DNA of 31,827 bases, from positions 1-31,827 of the forward strand of contig JACRKZ010000177.1 in NCBI GenBank assembly GCA_016235455.1, given 5' to 3'. The notes under the pieces are model-generated. The model saw only the letters and a list, made by a program, of their open reading frames with translations. It ran no database searches and was not told the DNA's origin. Each line of letters starts with the position of its first letter. The stretch's first letter is position 1. Shown piece by piece: positions 5,396-23,969 of this stretch. The translations under genes were made by a program, and so were the position numbers. This stretch comes from Armatimonadota bacterium (lineage in GTDB: Bacteria; Armatimonadota; UBA10988).

Positions 5396-6259
5396 TTGGA
5401 CGATCAGACGCTCAAGCGACGGCTGGCCAATCTCCGCCGACTGGCGCAGACGAGCGATTTCCAGGCGCTGGCGCAGTTTGTCAGCGACCGATCGCCCGCG
5501 GTGCGCCGGCGCGCGCTCGAGACGCTGACGCAGTACCACTTCGATGGCCTGCCGCAACTGCTGGTGCGTGGCTTGGCCGATGATGACGAGCGCGTGCGTG
5601 TGCTCTGTCGTGAAACGCTCATCCGCCATGCCGACGCAGCCGTGCCGGTCCTGGCCAACGGGCTGCGCGACCCGCGCCGCGCGGCTCTCTGCGCGGCCCT
5701 GCTGGCCAGCAGCGCCGCTGGCCGCCGGGTACTGGAGTCCGTGCCGGGCGTCGTGGAGCACTTGCTCGATGTCCTGCTGGATGCCGAGCAGCCCGGCCTG
5801 CTGCGTGGGCAGTGCCTCGCGTTCGTCGAGCGGCTGCGCGGCAGCACCATCGATATCGCGCTCGGCCGGTGTCTGAGCGACCGCGAGCTGCAGGTGCGCG
5901 AGGCCGCCCTGGCCGCCTTGCTGCGGCGCGACACACCCGAAGGCAACGACGCCCTGCTGGACTGGGCGGAGAGCAACTGGCGCGAGGCCGGCCTGCTCAT
6001 CGGTTGGCTGGCCGTGCATCCCGATCCGCGATCGCGCCTGGTGCTGGAGCGCATGGCGGGCTGGCACGGCCTGCTGGCCATGCCACTGCGCCGCTGTCAG
6101 GAGGCACGCGCGGCGCTGGGCCGTCTGCGCCGCCGACACGCCGTGGCCTCCGACGCGGCGCTGAGTCGGGCCAAGGCGCCCGCCCCGGCTCGCGCCGAGG
6201 CGGCCCTGAGCAAGGCGGCCAGTCCAGACGACAAGGAACAGAGGCGCACGCGACGTTAG
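5396..6259 (+). CDS. HEAT-repeat protein
   Basis: TTG start 7 nt after GGAG. Repeated HEAT motifs SDRSPAVRRRALETL, LADDDERVRVLCRETL and LSDRELQVREAALAAL. Confidence 0.8.
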   Translation: MDDQTLKRRLANLRRLAQTSDFQALAQFVSDRSPAVRRRALETLTQYHFDGLPQLLVRGLADDDERVRVLCRETLIRHADAAVPVLANGLRDPRRAALCAALLASSAAGRRVLESVPGVVEHLLDVLLDAEQPGLLRGQCLAFVERLRGSTIDIALGRCLSDRELQVREAALAALLRRDTPEGNDALLDWAESNWREAGLLIGWLAVHPDPRSRLVLERMAGWHGLLAMPLRRCQEARAALGRLRRRHAVASDAALSRAKAPAPARAEAALSKAASPDDKEQRRTRR

Positions 6260-6286
6260 CCGCAGTCTTGCCGCAACTTGACGCGG

Positions 6287-6316
6287 TTGACAGACACTCG
6301 GCGACGAGCGTACGCT
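6287..6316 (+). promoter_or_regulatory. Sigma70-type promoter
   Basis: TTGACA (6287-6292), 18-nt spacer, TACGCT (6311-6316). Predicted transcription start about 6321-6323. Confidence 0.7.
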
Positions 6317-6319
6317 CTA

Positions 6320-6455
6320 GGCAGGTAGAGGGTGTTGTCGATGAAGCGAATTCGCCAAAGACGCTGCCGGTTCGAGCCGCCGTTCCAGATACGGCGACAT
6401 GAATGGCGTCTGCTCACGGTATGCATACGTGAAGGCGACATCGAGACGATTTGCC
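6320..6455 (+). ncRNA. Candidate structured RNA/leader of unknown family
   Basis: Nested complementary segments: 6320-6326/6449-6455 (with G-U), 6338-6343/6439-6444, 6352-6356/6434-6438, 6359-6364/6406-6411, 6378-6383/6391-6396, plus side hairpin 6414-6418/6428-6432. It starts at the predicted TSS and ends at a terminator-like hairpin. Confidence 0.4.
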
Positions 6456-6469
6456 CAAGAGCCCGGTGA
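6341..6469 (+). CDS. Candidate 42-aa Arg-rich leader peptide (uORF)
   Basis: ATG after purine-rich AGAGGGTG; encodes MKRIRQRRCRFEPPFQIRRHEWRLLTVCIREGDIETICPRAR. The stop codon lies inside the downstream hairpin. Too short for the supplied ORF track. Confidence 0.3.
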   Translation: MKRIRQRRCRFEPPFQIRRHEWRLLTVCIREGDIETICPRAR

Positions 6470-6500
6470 CCTGCTCCGCAGGCATCGGGCTCTTGGCTTT
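6455..6500 (+). terminator. Terminator/attenuator-like hairpin upstream of the HNH gene
   Basis: CCAAGAGCCCG (6455-6465)/CGGGCTCTTGG (6486-6496), extended by GTG/CAT and CCTGC/GCAGG with loop TCC. Followed by a short CTTT. Confidence 0.6.
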
Positions 6501-6521
6501 GGGCCACCGGGAGAGGCGCAG

Positions 6522-7052
6522 ATGAACCGACAGGTGCTCGTGCTCAACCAGAACTACGAACCGCTGAACATCACCTCGATGCGGCGGGCGGTGGTTCTGT
6601 TGCACCTGGGCAAGGCCGAAGTGGTGGCCGAGCTCGAGCGGCATCTGCGCAGCACCAACCACTCCATGCACGAGCCAACCGTGGTGCGGCTATCGCACTT
6701 CGTGCGCCGGCCCTATCCAGATCTGCGCGTCACGCGGCGCGGCATCTTCGCGCGTGACGGCCATCGCTGCCAGTACTGCGGCGCTGAGAACGTGGTGCTG
6801 ACCATCGACCACGTCCTGCCGTCCAGCCGCGGCGGGGGCAACGACTGGACGAATCTCGTGGCGAGCTGCGTGGCCTGCAACAACAAGAAGGGCAGTCGCA
6901 CACCCGAGGAAGCCGGCATGAGGCTGCGGCACACCCCGTTCCGGCCGCGTACCGCGCCGTGCATCGGCTATGCGCGGTTCGTGGTCGGTGTGCGCGACCC
7001 GTACTGGAACAGCTATCTCGCGCCGTACGCCAAAGGGCTGGAGCTGAACTGA
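6522..7052 (+). CDS. HNH endonuclease (McrA-like, Zn-binding)
   Basis: ATG after GGGAGAGG. N-terminal VLVLNQNYEPL; RD..RCQYCG, LTIDHVLPSSRGG, W.NLVASCVACNNKKG.RTPEEAGM. His/Asn catalytic residues and two CxxC motifs are present. Confidence 0.93.
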   Translation: MNRQVLVLNQNYEPLNITSMRRAVVLLHLGKAEVVAELERHLRSTNHSMHEPTVVRLSHFVRRPYPDLRVTRRGIFARDGHRCQYCGAENVVLTIDHVLPSSRGGGNDWTNLVASCVACNNKKGSRTPEEAGMRLRHTPFRPRTAPCIGYARFVVGVRDPYWNSYLAPYAKGLELN

Positions 7053-13815: not shown

Positions 13816-14672
13816 GTGACGTCGCGTCTCACAAAGCGCCATAGCCCAGCCGTCGCGAATAGGATGATGGTCACACAGTGTACCCGAACCATGGGCCAAA
13901 CCGCCGCACCTGGGAACAGCAGCCGCCCGCTGTCCGGGTCGAAGGCGATCGGGTAGGCCTTGGCATGGTCAAAGAGGTAGTTGGAGAAGAGGTAGGGCTT
14001 CACCTTTTCCACCCAGTCAAAGTTCATGCCACAGATGATCTGGAGCGTGATGACCAGGCCCACCGCCGTGAAGCCGGGCGCCAGCGCGTTGTCGAACCAG
14101 CTGCCCAGCGCCACGGCGATGGTGCCGCCCGACATCATGGACAACGTCATGAGCGAGTAGGACAGCAGGATGTAGCGCGCGCCCTCTCCCGCGGTCATGA
14201 CGATGATCTTGCCTTCGGATGCCGGCGACACCGACGTCAGCTTGCCCCAGCCGAAGCACAGCGTGCCGATGGCCAGGCTCAGCAGCATGGTGAAGGCCGC
14301 GATCGACGCGGCGTAGAGCCAGGCGGTGGCGTACTTGGCCAGCCACACCTGCCAGCGCGGCCGCGGCCGCACCAGCATGGTGCGCAGCGTGCCGGCCGCG
14401 CCTTCGCCGCCGAGGATCTCGCCGATCACCACCGGTGCCAGGTACAACAGCAGCATGGCGATGGTGATGCTCACCGCCTGACACTCGAACAGGCCGTTGC
14501 GCAGGTCGCCCACAATCTCCATCTGGCCGCCGCGGTTGGGGCGGAACGCGTGGCGGTCCTGCCTCATGCCCCAGGTCATCAGCCCAATCAACAGCGTGCT
14601 GGCGGCGTACAGCAGGTACGGCGCGAAGCGCCGGTGGAGGCGGTAGATCTCCCAACGCAGCAGGACGATCAC
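13809..14672 (-). CDS. ABC-2 type transporter permease
   Basis: Several TM segments; GE...GTLRTMLVRP..RWQVWLAK motif; C-terminal F.RRDV. Confidence 0.9.
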   Translation of the reverse strand: MIVLLRWEIYRLHRRFAPYLLYAASTLLIGLMTWGMRQDRHAFRPNRGGQMEIVGDLRNGLFECQAVSITIAMLLLYLAPVVIGEILGGEGAAGTLRTMLVRPRPRWQVWLAKYATAWLYAASIAAFTMLLSLAIGTLCFGWGKLTSVSPASEGKIIVMTAGEGARYILLSYSLMTLSMMSGGTIAVALGSWFDNALAPGFTAVGLVITLQIICGMNFDWVEKVKPYLFSNYLFDHAKAYPIAFDPDSGRLLFPGAAVWPMVRVHCVTIILFATAGLWRFVRRDVTC

Positions 14673-20742: not shown

Positions 20743-21263
20743 TTCGCCTCCGCGTCCTTGCGGAACGTGGGGTCGGCGTGGAGATCACGCCGCACATGCG
20801 GGCGCAACTCCTCGGGCAGCATGGCCATGGCGGCGTCCAGCGGCTCGGCGAAGTTCTTCTTGCCAAACTGCTTGCGCACCAGCGCCATCATCATCGTGGC
20901 CACTTCCTGCTGCTCGGCGTCACCGGCCATGGTGGCCAGGGCATCGACCCGCAGGCTGTAGGCCGTGGCCTCAACCCACTGGTCGACCCGGCGCGCCACG
21001 GCGGCGGCGTTGCCCCAGGGCGTGATCTTCTCGTCTAGCGTGGCGGTCTCGGGCACCAGCGCGGCGGACTTCAGGTACGATTCCAGCGCCGCCTCAAAGT
21101 CCTTGAGGTCGCACTGCACCGTGCCGATGTTGTTATACGCGATGGCTTCGGCCAGCGCGTCGCCGCTCTCCTGGGCCTCGGCCGCCTCGCGCCGGAGCGC
21201 TTCCAGGCTGCCCTCGAGGTCCTTCTTGCGTCGTTGTTCGTTCTTCTCTCGTCCAAATCGCAC
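20739..21263 (-). CDS. Tetratricopeptide-repeat protein
   Basis: GTG after GGAGGG; EAIAYNNIGTVQCDLKDFEAALESYLKS is a TPR consensus. Confidence 0.8.
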   Translation of the reverse strand: MRFGREKNEQRRKKDLEGSLEALRREAAEAQESGDALAEAIAYNNIGTVQCDLKDFEAALESYLKSAALVPETATLDEKITPWGNAAAVARRVDQWVEATAYSLRVDALATMAGDAEQQEVATMMMALVRKQFGKKNFAEPLDAAMAMLPEELRPHVRRDLHADPTFRKDAEAK

Positions 21264-21322
21264 GGTGCCGCCCTCCAATCCGACCACGATACCCTTGGAA
21301 GCCCACTATGGTCAACGAGCCC

Positions 21323-21394
21323 TGACCCGAGCCGGAGGATGCGGGCCGCCGGCAAGCACGCTCGCCCGCGGCTCGCATCCTCGGTCGCGGGTCA
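21323..21394. repeat. 72-nt imperfect inverted repeat (terminator or REP-like)
   Basis: TGACCCG/CGGGTCA enclose GAGGATGCGGGCCGC/GCGGCTCGCATCCTC, immediately after the ThuA stop. Confidence 0.65.
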
Positions 21395-21396
21395 CC

Positions 21397-22747: not shown

Positions 22748-23968
22748 ATGCGCCGTGTTGTCGTTACCGGTCTCGGTGTGATCTGTTCTGTTGGCCACGA
22801 TGTGCCCCAGTTGCTCGCGGCGCTGACCGAGGGCCGCTCCGGGACCGCTACGATCGCTTCGCTCGATCCGTCGTGGCTCAACACCCAGGTCGGTGCCGAG
22901 GTGCGTAACGCCAGCTTCGACCATGTGGTGCCGCGCCCCGAGCAGCGCCATCTCGACCGTCAGTCGCTGCTGGCCATCCACGCCGCGCAGCAGGCGGTGG
23001 ACGACGCCGGGTTCACTTCGGCCGAGGACGGGCCGCGCTGCGGTGTCATCCTTGGTACCGGCATGGGGCCTGTCGAGACCATCGACGGCGCCATCCGCGA
23101 AGTGCATATCGACAAGCGCAAGCCGCGGCCAACCACCATCCCGCGCTGCATGTTCAACGCGGCCTCGGGCCAGTTGTCCATCCGCTTCGGCTGCAAGGGC
23201 CCGTCGCAGACCATCGTGACGGCCTGCGCCTCCAGCGCGCACGCACTGGGCCAGGCCGCCAACTTCATTCGCCACGGCACCGCCGACGCATTCCTGGCCG
23301 GCGGCACCGAAGTCTTTCCGACGCTGTCACTGCTGGCCGCGTGGGACACGCTGCGTGTCATGTCCACCAGCAACGACCGGCCGGAAGCGGCCAGTCGTCC
23401 GTTCAACCGCGACCGCGACGGGTTCGTCATGGGCGAGGGCTCGGCGGTGCTGGTGCTCGAGAGCGAGGAGCGCGCCACGGCGCGCGGCGCGCGCATCTAC
23501 GGCGAGATCATTGGTGTGGGCCTCAGTTCCGACGCCCACCACATCACCCAGCCGCAGGTGGGTGGCTTGGTGCAGGCCATGAGCCTGGCGCTGGCCGATG
23601 CCCAGGTGGCGCCTGAGGACGTGCAGTACATCAACGCCCACGGCACCGCCACGCCGATCAATGATCCGCTGGAGACCGAGGCCATCAAGCAGGTCTACGG
23701 CGACCATGCCCGCCGGCTGATGGTCAGTTCCACCAAGTCGGCGCACGGTCACACCATCGGCGCCGCGGGCGCGCTCGAAGCCACGGCCACGTTGCTGGGC
23801 ATGAACCACGGTTTCGTGCCCGCGACGCTCAACCTGACCGACCCGGATCCGGCCTGTGACCTGGACTGCGTGCCGCTCACGCCGCGCGCCGAACGGTTCG
23901 ATGTGGCCATGAGCAACTCCTTCGCCTTCGGCGGACACAACGTCTCGCTGGTGTTCCGGCGGTACTGA
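22748..23968 (+). CDS. fabF: Beta-ketoacyl-ACP synthase II family protein
   Basis: MRRVVVTGLG; Cys-His-His triad in TACASS, INAHGTAT and KSAHGHTIGAAG; SRPFN..RDGFVMGEG; SNSFAFGGHN. Confidence 0.93.
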   Translation: MRRVVVTGLGVICSVGHDVPQLLAALTEGRSGTATIASLDPSWLNTQVGAEVRNASFDHVVPRPEQRHLDRQSLLAIHAAQQAVDDAGFTSAEDGPRCGVILGTGMGPVETIDGAIREVHIDKRKPRPTTIPRCMFNAASGQLSIRFGCKGPSQTIVTACASSAHALGQAANFIRHGTADAFLAGGTEVFPTLSLLAAWDTLRVMSTSNDRPEAASRPFNRDRDGFVMGEGSAVLVLESEERATARGARIYGEIIGVGLSSDAHHITQPQVGGLVQAMSLALADAQVAPEDVQYINAHGTATPINDPLETEAIKQVYGDHARRLMVSSTKSAHGHTIGAAGALEATATLLGMNHGFVPATLNLTDPDPACDLDCVPLTPRAERFDVAMSNSFAFGGHNVSLVFRRY

Positions 23969-23969
23969 G

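Follow-up and report, generated by a model that had tools for sequence, protein, structure and literature searches.

The stretch of DNA analysed here (hereafter, the window) comprises 31,827 nucleotides (nt) from an Armatimonadota bacterium (contig JACRKZ010000177.1 of assembly GCA_016235455.1), and the subject of the analysis is a small nuclease gene together with the leader that precedes it. Between the end of a HEAT-repeat gene at 6259 and the nuclease start codon, ATG 6522, lie 262 nt without a long gene. A previous inspection of the letters alone (hereafter, the sequence-only reading) had seen in this stretch a promoter, a structured RNA of about 135 nt and a strong hairpin, followed by an HNH endonuclease that the RNA might control or accompany. 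The leader is found here to hold a short open reading frame (ORF) that runs into a terminator-like hairpin, and the nuclease to have the domain layout of the proteins named IshB. The features are listed below; the promoter and Shine-Dalgarno sites are as read from the sequence.

6287–6316, forward strand: promoter-like site, with −35 element TTGACA (6287–6292), an 18-nt spacer and −10 element TACGCT (6311–6316)
6328–6332, forward strand: putative Shine-Dalgarno-like GAGGG, 8 nt 5' of the ATG of the small ORF
6341–6469, forward strand: small leader ORF of 42 codons plus a TGA stop, MKRIRQRRCRFEPPFQIRRHEWRLLTVCIREGDIETICPRAR; present in the ORF list from an upstream GTG, unannotated
6389–6391, forward strand: rare isoleucine codon AUA, codon 17, in the motif P-P-F-Q-I
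6425–6427, forward strand: second rare isoleucine codon AUA, codon 29, in the motif L-L-T-V-C-I; same frame, 12 codons downstream of the first
6455–6500, forward strand: intrinsic-terminator-like hairpin, with arms 6455–6474 and 6479–6496 followed by a short, interrupted U tract (CUUU, 6497–6500)
6509–6516, forward strand: Shine-Dalgarno-like GGGAGAGG of the HNH gene, 5 nt 5' of its ATG
6522–7052, forward strand: IshB-like nuclease gene, 176 amino acids, with a PLMP-like domain (residues 3–63), an HNH domain (64–143) and C-terminal helices

The nuclease start was assigned to ATG 6522 because the resulting N-terminus, MNRQVLVLN, aligns with those of 50 homologues. From the position of the promoter-like site, transcription would be expected to start near 6323. 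A sigma70 promoter had been claimed at this place, and its two elements are present, with an equivalent site (9 or more of 12 matches) in the corresponding position, 220–380 nt upstream, in 21 of 30 related loci; a consensus promoter scan, however, called 0 sites, since the −10 element matches at only three of six positions. The stop codon of the small ORF (6467–6469) falls inside the 5' arm of the hairpin, and 25 nt separate the 3' end of the hairpin from the nuclease ATG. The interval 6500–6522 is probably too short for a separate promoter. That the stretch is the largest intergenic gap of the window, as had been stated, is not borne out by a crude gene model based on the G+C content of third codon positions (GC3), which leaves four larger apparent gaps. 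These lie at 422–1053, 13900–14668, 20962–21396 and 23497–23969, and may hold genes that the GC3-based model missed.

The hairpin is the one structural element of the leader that is conserved. Folding of 6450–6505 gives −36.6 kcal/mol with about 17 pairs (z −5.32, none of 200 shuffles as good), and the hairpin is the sole structure retained by RNAalifold in a seven-locus alignment of the window's family, where 10 of its 17 pairs show compensatory changes. The strong hairpin described about 25 nt before the HNH gene is thereby borne out. The multi-helix fold of some 135 nt proposed for the region upstream fares differently. The minimum-energy structure of 6320–6454 is indeed a nested multi-helix fold like the one proposed, but its energy is not above chance (z −1.25, with 24 of 200 shuffles at least as good) and its helices are not kept in relatives. 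With the fold of the window imposed on the family alignment, pairing is kept in 86% of cells for the hairpin and in 29–75% for the seven upstream helices, which is close to the background for a structure derived from one alignment row. Neither RNAalifold nor the imposed fold gives conservation or covariation outside the hairpin. For the 135-nt part, two outcomes that the sequence-only reading had itself named as refuting are therefore observed, a folding energy no better than that of shuffles and the lack of conserved or covarying structure. The leader as a whole folds better than its shuffles on the plus strand (z −4.14, against −1.99 on the minus strand), a signal attributed to the hairpin alone given the z-scores without it and for it by itself. 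A riboswitch or other structured cis-regulatory RNA is accordingly not supported for 6320–6454.

Rfam returned no match at gathering score in the window. A permissive scan of 6200–6600 (E up to 10) returned only a chance microRNA match on the hairpin (E 0.73), and no Rfam match was obtained in 20 related loci. Tandem Repeats Finder gave 0 rows for 6200–6600, and no tRNA or tmRNA genes were found in 30 related loci. A divergent 6S-like RNA, one of three options raised by the sequence-only reading, finds no match in the permissive scan either. A guide, scaffold or antitoxin RNA, another of these options, is likewise unsupported, there being no conserved structure beyond the hairpin, no Rfam or HEARO match and no tandem repeats; the last of these results also speaks against a type III toxin-antitoxin repeat RNA.

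The substitution patterns of the leader were compared in all six frames on nucleotide alignments from six clades, with the candidate frame fixed beforehand by position as that of the ORF ending at the terminator. This frame has the highest synonymous fraction of the six in every clade (6/6). The excess is clear in g20 (0.236), f7 (0.226), f25 (0.222, the top frame there being frame 2, that of the ORF whose stop is at −21 in L206) and f18 (0.257), and mean BLOSUM scores are positive in these four. Hand-summed over five independent close pairs, the ORF frame shows 47 synonymous and 124 non-synonymous changes, versus 24/144 and 24/142 in the other frames. In genus g20 the third codon position is the most variable, with 23, 20 and 32 of 40 sites varying at the three positions (p 0.016). 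The window and its same-genus relative L002 both carry ORFs of 42 codons, which differ by 6 synonymous and 21 non-synonymous changes (2/22 and 5/23 in the other frames) and share the conserved block PPF-x-IRR-xx-WRLLTVCI. Within the conserved core of a relative of about 91% identity recovered from sequencing runs, the changes at R19 and V27 are synonymous, and the third listed change is H20 to E.

The encoded peptide has no Pfam or PADLOC match, and a 42-amino-acid query found no homologue in the protein collection. Motifs common to the clades, F-x-I and LL-x-x-[SC]-[FI], are recognised by eye only. An all-against-all blastp comparison of upstream frames was uninformative, as close relatives match in every frame and on both strands (32 plus-strand and 32 minus-strand pairs). 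Prediction of a complex between the nuclease and the small peptide returned 'no answer' with a score of 0.00 and counts neither way. Judged by the substitution patterns, the conserved content of the leader more likely behaves as a short protein-coding frame than as a folded RNA. The remaining option of the sequence-only reading, a cis-acting leader that gates the nuclease, is retained in part: the terminator-like hairpin survives, but the conserved content has the character of a coding frame and not of a folded RNA.

The layout recurs across the Armatimonadota. In the first set of 30 loci, a GC-rich hairpin with a T-rich tail lies 15–110 nt before the nuclease start. Among 102 Armatimonadota upstream regions, evaluated with ad hoc statistics and including a few duplicates from one and the same genome, a hairpin of −15 kcal/mol or lower with a T-rich tail is present within 200 nt of the start in 72, and an ORF of at least 25 codons ends at that hairpin in 64. 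One of the loci with the layout, L026, belongs to a complete genome of 3.4 Mb. Loci from other phyla mostly appear, by eye, to be without a strong hairpin directly before the start. Over 51 curated loci, chosen partly by the closeness of stop to hairpin, 27 have a small ORF whose stop ends 0–12 nt before the stem, 18 have the stop within the hairpin (12 nt inside in the window) and one has it 14 nt before the stem, while in five the ORF extends past the hairpin; the geometry of a stop at the hairpin is thus found in 46 of 51. The median distance from terminator end to nuclease start in these 51 loci is 38 nt. The count based on terminators was used for this geometry, a 'best hairpin' search without the T-tail rule being too noisy. 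The hairpin is not a neighbouring gene's terminator, since the nearest long upstream ORF is on the opposite strand in several loci (e.g. L019 and L025).

The small ORF is poor in preferred codons. In the window its GC3 is 0.62 versus 0.88 in genes, and its codon adaptation index of 0.38 ranks among the lowest 3% when set against 444 gene windows. In each of the 24 loci compared, GC3 is lower in the small ORF than in the HNH gene of that locus. ATA accounts for three of 103 isoleucine codons in the genes of the window. The isoleucine codons of 53 curated small ORFs comprise 43 ATA, 15 ATC and 10 ATT (ATA 43/68), compared with ATA 23/260 in the HNH genes. Counted by frame in 41 non-duplicate loci, ATA occurs 40, 18 and 5 times, an in-frame excess seen only with curated frames and after removal of near-duplicates. 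Two ATA-bearing motifs spaced by approximately 36–39 nt are present in five of eight family loci (L001–L004 and L031); L006 and L004 each have an extra ATA-motif match nearby, and L005 and L007 are without the first motif. AUA is genuinely preferred in several families, among them that of the window, though not in all.

The nuclease gene itself is intact, as previously described, and its 176-residue product retains the HNH and zinc-coordinating residues: D96, H97, N111, N120 and four cysteines are invariant in 50 sequences. Pfam matches are restricted to HNH families (HNH_5/HNH), and the PADLOC matches are at the level of the HNH domain only (PtuB and PDC-M01B), with no match to a whole system. 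The NCBIfam model guided_IscB scores 74 bits on the HNH part, below its cut-off. When a profile of the 50 homologues was searched against the PDB, the top hit was TbaIscB (E 2.5e-19), followed by Cas9d and IscB chains; in the same search residues 4–37 align weakly to the PLMP-motif stretch of TbaIscB (conditional E 0.0011).

The AlphaFold2 model (pLDDT 89.6) is composed of an N-terminal domain with a beta-beta-alpha-beta-beta fold and an HNH domain, plus short helices. Aligned with VIA-align, residues 64–143 of the model match NbaCas9 (Z 9.6), and residues 3–63 match residues 2–49 of HfmIscB with a Z-score of 6.3 and an rmsd (root-mean-square deviation) of 1.3 Å over 48 residues at 25% identity. 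Foldseek matched DtIsrB, which is without an HNH domain, at rank 27 with probability 0.99. The N-terminus of the modelled nuclease is an IscB-type PLMP domain, although the motif that gives the domain its name reads E-P-L-N here and not P-L-M-P, and the HNH domain is closest to those of IscB and Cas9d. The sequence-only reading was right in finding no RuvC domain, as the Pfam matches and the two-domain model agree, but its description of the protein as McrA-like and without known RNA-linked kin does not stand in view of these two domains.

The layout of PLMP plus HNH domain has been named IshB (PMC11610941, PMC10734217, PMC13284715), and the nuclease has this layout: 176 amino acids with both domains and neither a RuvC nor a TAM-interacting domain, TAM denoting the target-adjacent motif. 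In the available text of these sources IshB is considered solely as what may have been an early stage of the IscB/Cas9 lineage (PMC13284715), and no reported function for it was found in the literature to the extent that its text was accessible. The gene in the window differs from IshB in its setting, being a near single-copy core gene with HEAT-repeat and HAD-hydrolase neighbours and no sign of a transposon, and it has no omega-RNA-like structure beside it.

The 6.5-Mb genome has one copy of the nuclease gene, and 38 of 41 related genomes possess the gene too. In a phylum-wide sample it is carried by 228 of 251 Armatimonadota genomes (192 of the 206 of high quality), nearly always as a single copy. 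An insertion-sequence context of the IS200/IS605 kind, which the name IshB implies, was not found, the gene being single-copy and having a HEAT-repeat and a HAD-hydrolase gene as neighbours; its character is that of a core gene and not of a mobile one. Homologues with 45–53% identity are found in Bacteroidota, Ignavibacteriota, Chloroflexota, Zixibacteria and Cyanobacteria. Over the 50 homologues, which come from several phyla, mean column identity is 58%, and 24 columns are invariant. For a small nuclease, the IshB-like protein shows an unusually low rate of evolution, which fits a housekeeping role.

The arrangement of these parts is best explained as a form of leader-ORF attenuation; no description of a leader ORF and terminator before an IshB-like gene was found in the literature. 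We consider the chances slightly better than even that the stretch comprises the leader ORF and attenuator of the IshB-like nuclease, and that a ribosome finishing the ORF masks the terminator. The promoter at 6287–6316 would drive the rare-codon-rich ORF, whose stop lies within the 5' arm of the terminator, and the nuclease gene would be transcribed only by read-through, since there is no room for a promoter of its own between the hairpin and the start. A ribosome close behind RNA polymerase at the end of the ORF would cover the 5' arm, so that no terminator would form and the nuclease gene would be transcribed. A lagging ribosome, delayed for instance at the two AUA codons or at other rare codons, would leave the hairpin free to form, and transcription would stop. 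Translation of the small ORF in the window, termination at the hairpin and the direction of the coupling between them are what we infer from this arrangement.

Occlusion by the ribosome is the simplest working model because antiterminator pairing is not detectable. Pairing of the 90 nt upstream with the 5' arm of the terminator, compared with 100 shuffles, gives z +1.09 for the window and a median of +0.22 over 57 loci, with z below −2 in nine of the 57. On these values a classical attenuator of the trp/his antiterminator type was rejected. The closest known arrangement is that of pyrBI in Escherichia coli, where a leader ORF of about 44 codons extends into the hairpin of the attenuator and termination is averted by a ribosome in close coupling with the polymerase. 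The window resembles it in having a short ORF, with its own start signals, that ends in or next to a terminator-like hairpin just before the regulated gene. Attenuation of the pyrBI type needs no antiterminator, which fits the negative pairing test. The regulated gene differs, being a nuclease here and a biosynthetic operon there, as does the candidate pace-setter, a rare AUA codon in place of nucleotide-sensitive pausing of the polymerase.

With the classical attenuators (the trpL, hisL and ilv leaders) and the arrest peptides TnaC and ErmCL the window shares a short ORF in the leader, a terminator ahead of the structural gene and an enrichment of particular codons. It differs from them in that no alternative antiterminator pairing is detected in the window or most relatives, and in that the enriched codon is that of a rare isoacceptor and not a run of codons for a single amino acid. 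The omega-RNA or HEARO element of IscB and IsrB is comparable in position, lying directly upstream of a PLMP-bearing nuclease gene with a hairpin end beside the Shine-Dalgarno sequence, according to the portion of PMC9581776 that was available. The leader of the window, in contrast, has no conserved multi-helix scaffold, Rfam match or mobile-element end, and its conserved content is a reading frame.

Sequencing runs provide a limited view of expression. Near-identical DNA is present in runs from groundwater and freshwater metagenomes, and the relative of about 91% identity occurs in bioreactor runs, four of which were compared with the window. A contig of 191 nt from an RNA library covers 6307–6492 at a depth of 16.2, and the next contig of the same run starts at 6509 at a depth of 9.2. 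Position 6509 is likewise the start of an RNA-library contig from a second study. The DNA run covers 6189–6751, hairpin included, without a break. For the close relative these contigs hint weakly that cover falls at the hairpin and that there is some read-through. Neither stretches lacking cover nor the small shares of runs X10–X19 were counted as evidence of habitat or expression.

Several observations weigh against attenuation by the leader ORF, beyond the lack of antiterminator pairing. The terminator scan does not call the hairpin, the T run being short. A contig from a third RNA run bridges the hairpin (6422–6599), and the promoter region too has cover from RNA libraries. The ends of transcripts cannot be read from contigs, and RNA libraries may contain DNA. 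The synonymous fraction is marginal in two of the six clades, at 0.110 in f24/33 and 0.127 in the window's family f1, where the alignment is poor. Profile-profile comparison (hhalign) of seven clade peptide alignments was not significant (best P 0.016 over 21 comparisons), so that a conserved layout can be demonstrated and one ancient peptide family cannot. Roughly 30 of the 102 Armatimonadota loci are without the layout, including all 14 of genus g51, and the count of geometry is partly circular owing to the way in which the curated loci were selected. The ORF of the window cannot be recognised as coding from its composition alone, since the other two frames look similar (GC3 of 0.60 and 0.55). 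In all 53 curated loci the count of ATA by frame is 43/39/13, the +1 frame nearly equalling frame 0, and automatically picked ORFs give 53/55/24, with no in-frame excess.

The small ORF could instead encode a functional micro-protein, one that inhibits the nuclease, partners it in the manner of an antitoxin or serves it as a cofactor; the terminator would then set a high ratio of peptide to nuclease. This is unlikely, although the coding-type conservation within families and the order of small ORF then nuclease, kept across the phylum, would be expected of it, and the operon logic resembles that of antitoxin-first pairs. The consistently poor codon usage and the preference for AUA would be unusual for a protein needed in excess, its divergence is so fast that the clade profiles do not match, and no family or database homologue is found for it; moreover, the nuclease persists at 45–53% identity in many phyla without the layout, from which it follows that a partner is not needed. 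That the small ORF and terminator have no regulatory link to the nuclease, constituting an independent mini-gene or a spurious pair while expression of the nuclease depends on a start site not recognised here or on constitutive leakage past the terminator, is still less probable. The terminator of some relatives does lie 85–130 nt before the nuclease start, which is enough for a promoter, and the RNA-library contigs of two studies that start at about 6507–6509 are a weak hint in the same direction. The distance from hairpin to ATG is, however, only 25 nt in the window with the short median given above, and the two genes stay together in families that differ in their other neighbours.

It appears very unlikely that the transcript 6323–6500 is a non-coding RNA, either a riboswitch-like sensor or a trans-acting or scaffold RNA bound in the manner of an omega-RNA, with the open frame incidental. 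The unit from promoter to terminator is discrete and of about 180 nt, the whole leader folds well on the plus strand, the nucleotide motif UUC-NNN-AUA is kept in several families, and composition does not separate the three frames of the window. In IsrB, according to the text available from PMC9581776, it is the PLMP domain that touches the terminal hairpin of the omega-RNA and the Shine-Dalgarno sequence just upstream of the gene, and the nuclease of the window has such a domain. As set out above, however, the fold signal comes from the hairpin alone with no other helix conserved, and Rfam gives no match in the window or the 20 related loci. The substitution patterns fit a reading frame in all six clades, synonymous changes in genus g20 break candidate pairs (by eye), and the gene is single-copy in a context that is not mobile.

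The preference for AUA, if causal, would place the nuclease under a seldom-seen form of control gated by codons. The leader ORF and terminator dedicated to it offer an experimental handle on the timing of nuclease expression and on the translational signal behind it, and the layout argues against seeking a guide RNA at this place. IshB, a minimal relative of the ancestors of Cas9, could conceivably be a housekeeping chromosomal nuclease and not a passenger of transposons, gated phylum-wide by a leader ORF paced by lysidine-dependent decoding of AUA, so that the level of the nuclease would report decoding capacity. By analogy with IsrB, the PLMP domain may also bind its own leader hairpin and Shine-Dalgarno sequence, and that leader would then be a relic or a forerunner of the protein-RNA partnership that led to guide RNAs; such a combined picture is speculative and quite improbable. 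In scans of GC-rich genomes, 'structured RNAs' that extend from promoter to terminator should be tested for short reading frames first.

The layout varies between lineages. In seven loci (L013, L247, L026, L226, L230, L018 and L007) the 90 nt upstream pair with the 5' arm of the terminator at z −2.6 to −4.9, and some lineages may thus have a true antiterminator, though not most, nor the window. In four loci of family f25 (L200, L206, L208 and L209) and one of the window's family (L003) the small ORF reads through the hairpin. These read-through ORFs end 1–21 nt before the nuclease start, and that of L003 overlaps the start codon, which suggests translational coupling in those loci, either instead of or added to control by termination.

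Fourteen loci of one Armatimonadota genus (L231–L244) are without the small ORF and terminator and have the element GGAGGTGA-N5-TTCCAC directly before the nuclease ORF. This element gives an N-terminal extension, T-A-F-H-S-K-D-G, that is like the extension of the Bacteroidota protein. The latter is seen in 45 loci from Bacteroidota, Ignavibacteriota and allies (L035–L170), where (A/G)GGAGG is followed after 7–10 nt by TTC-AG(C/T), 12–111 nt before the aligned HNH start. The TTC is in frame with the nuclease ORF in 45 of 45, giving an extension of the form x-F-S-..., and in 16 of the 45 there is an in-frame stop one or two codons before the TTC, with no ATG, GTG or TTG available there. Several of these loci have TTA or CTT at the position aligned with the usual start codon. 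The sequences suggest a non-canonical start or recoding behind a strong Shine-Dalgarno sequence, which would be unusual for Bacteroidota.

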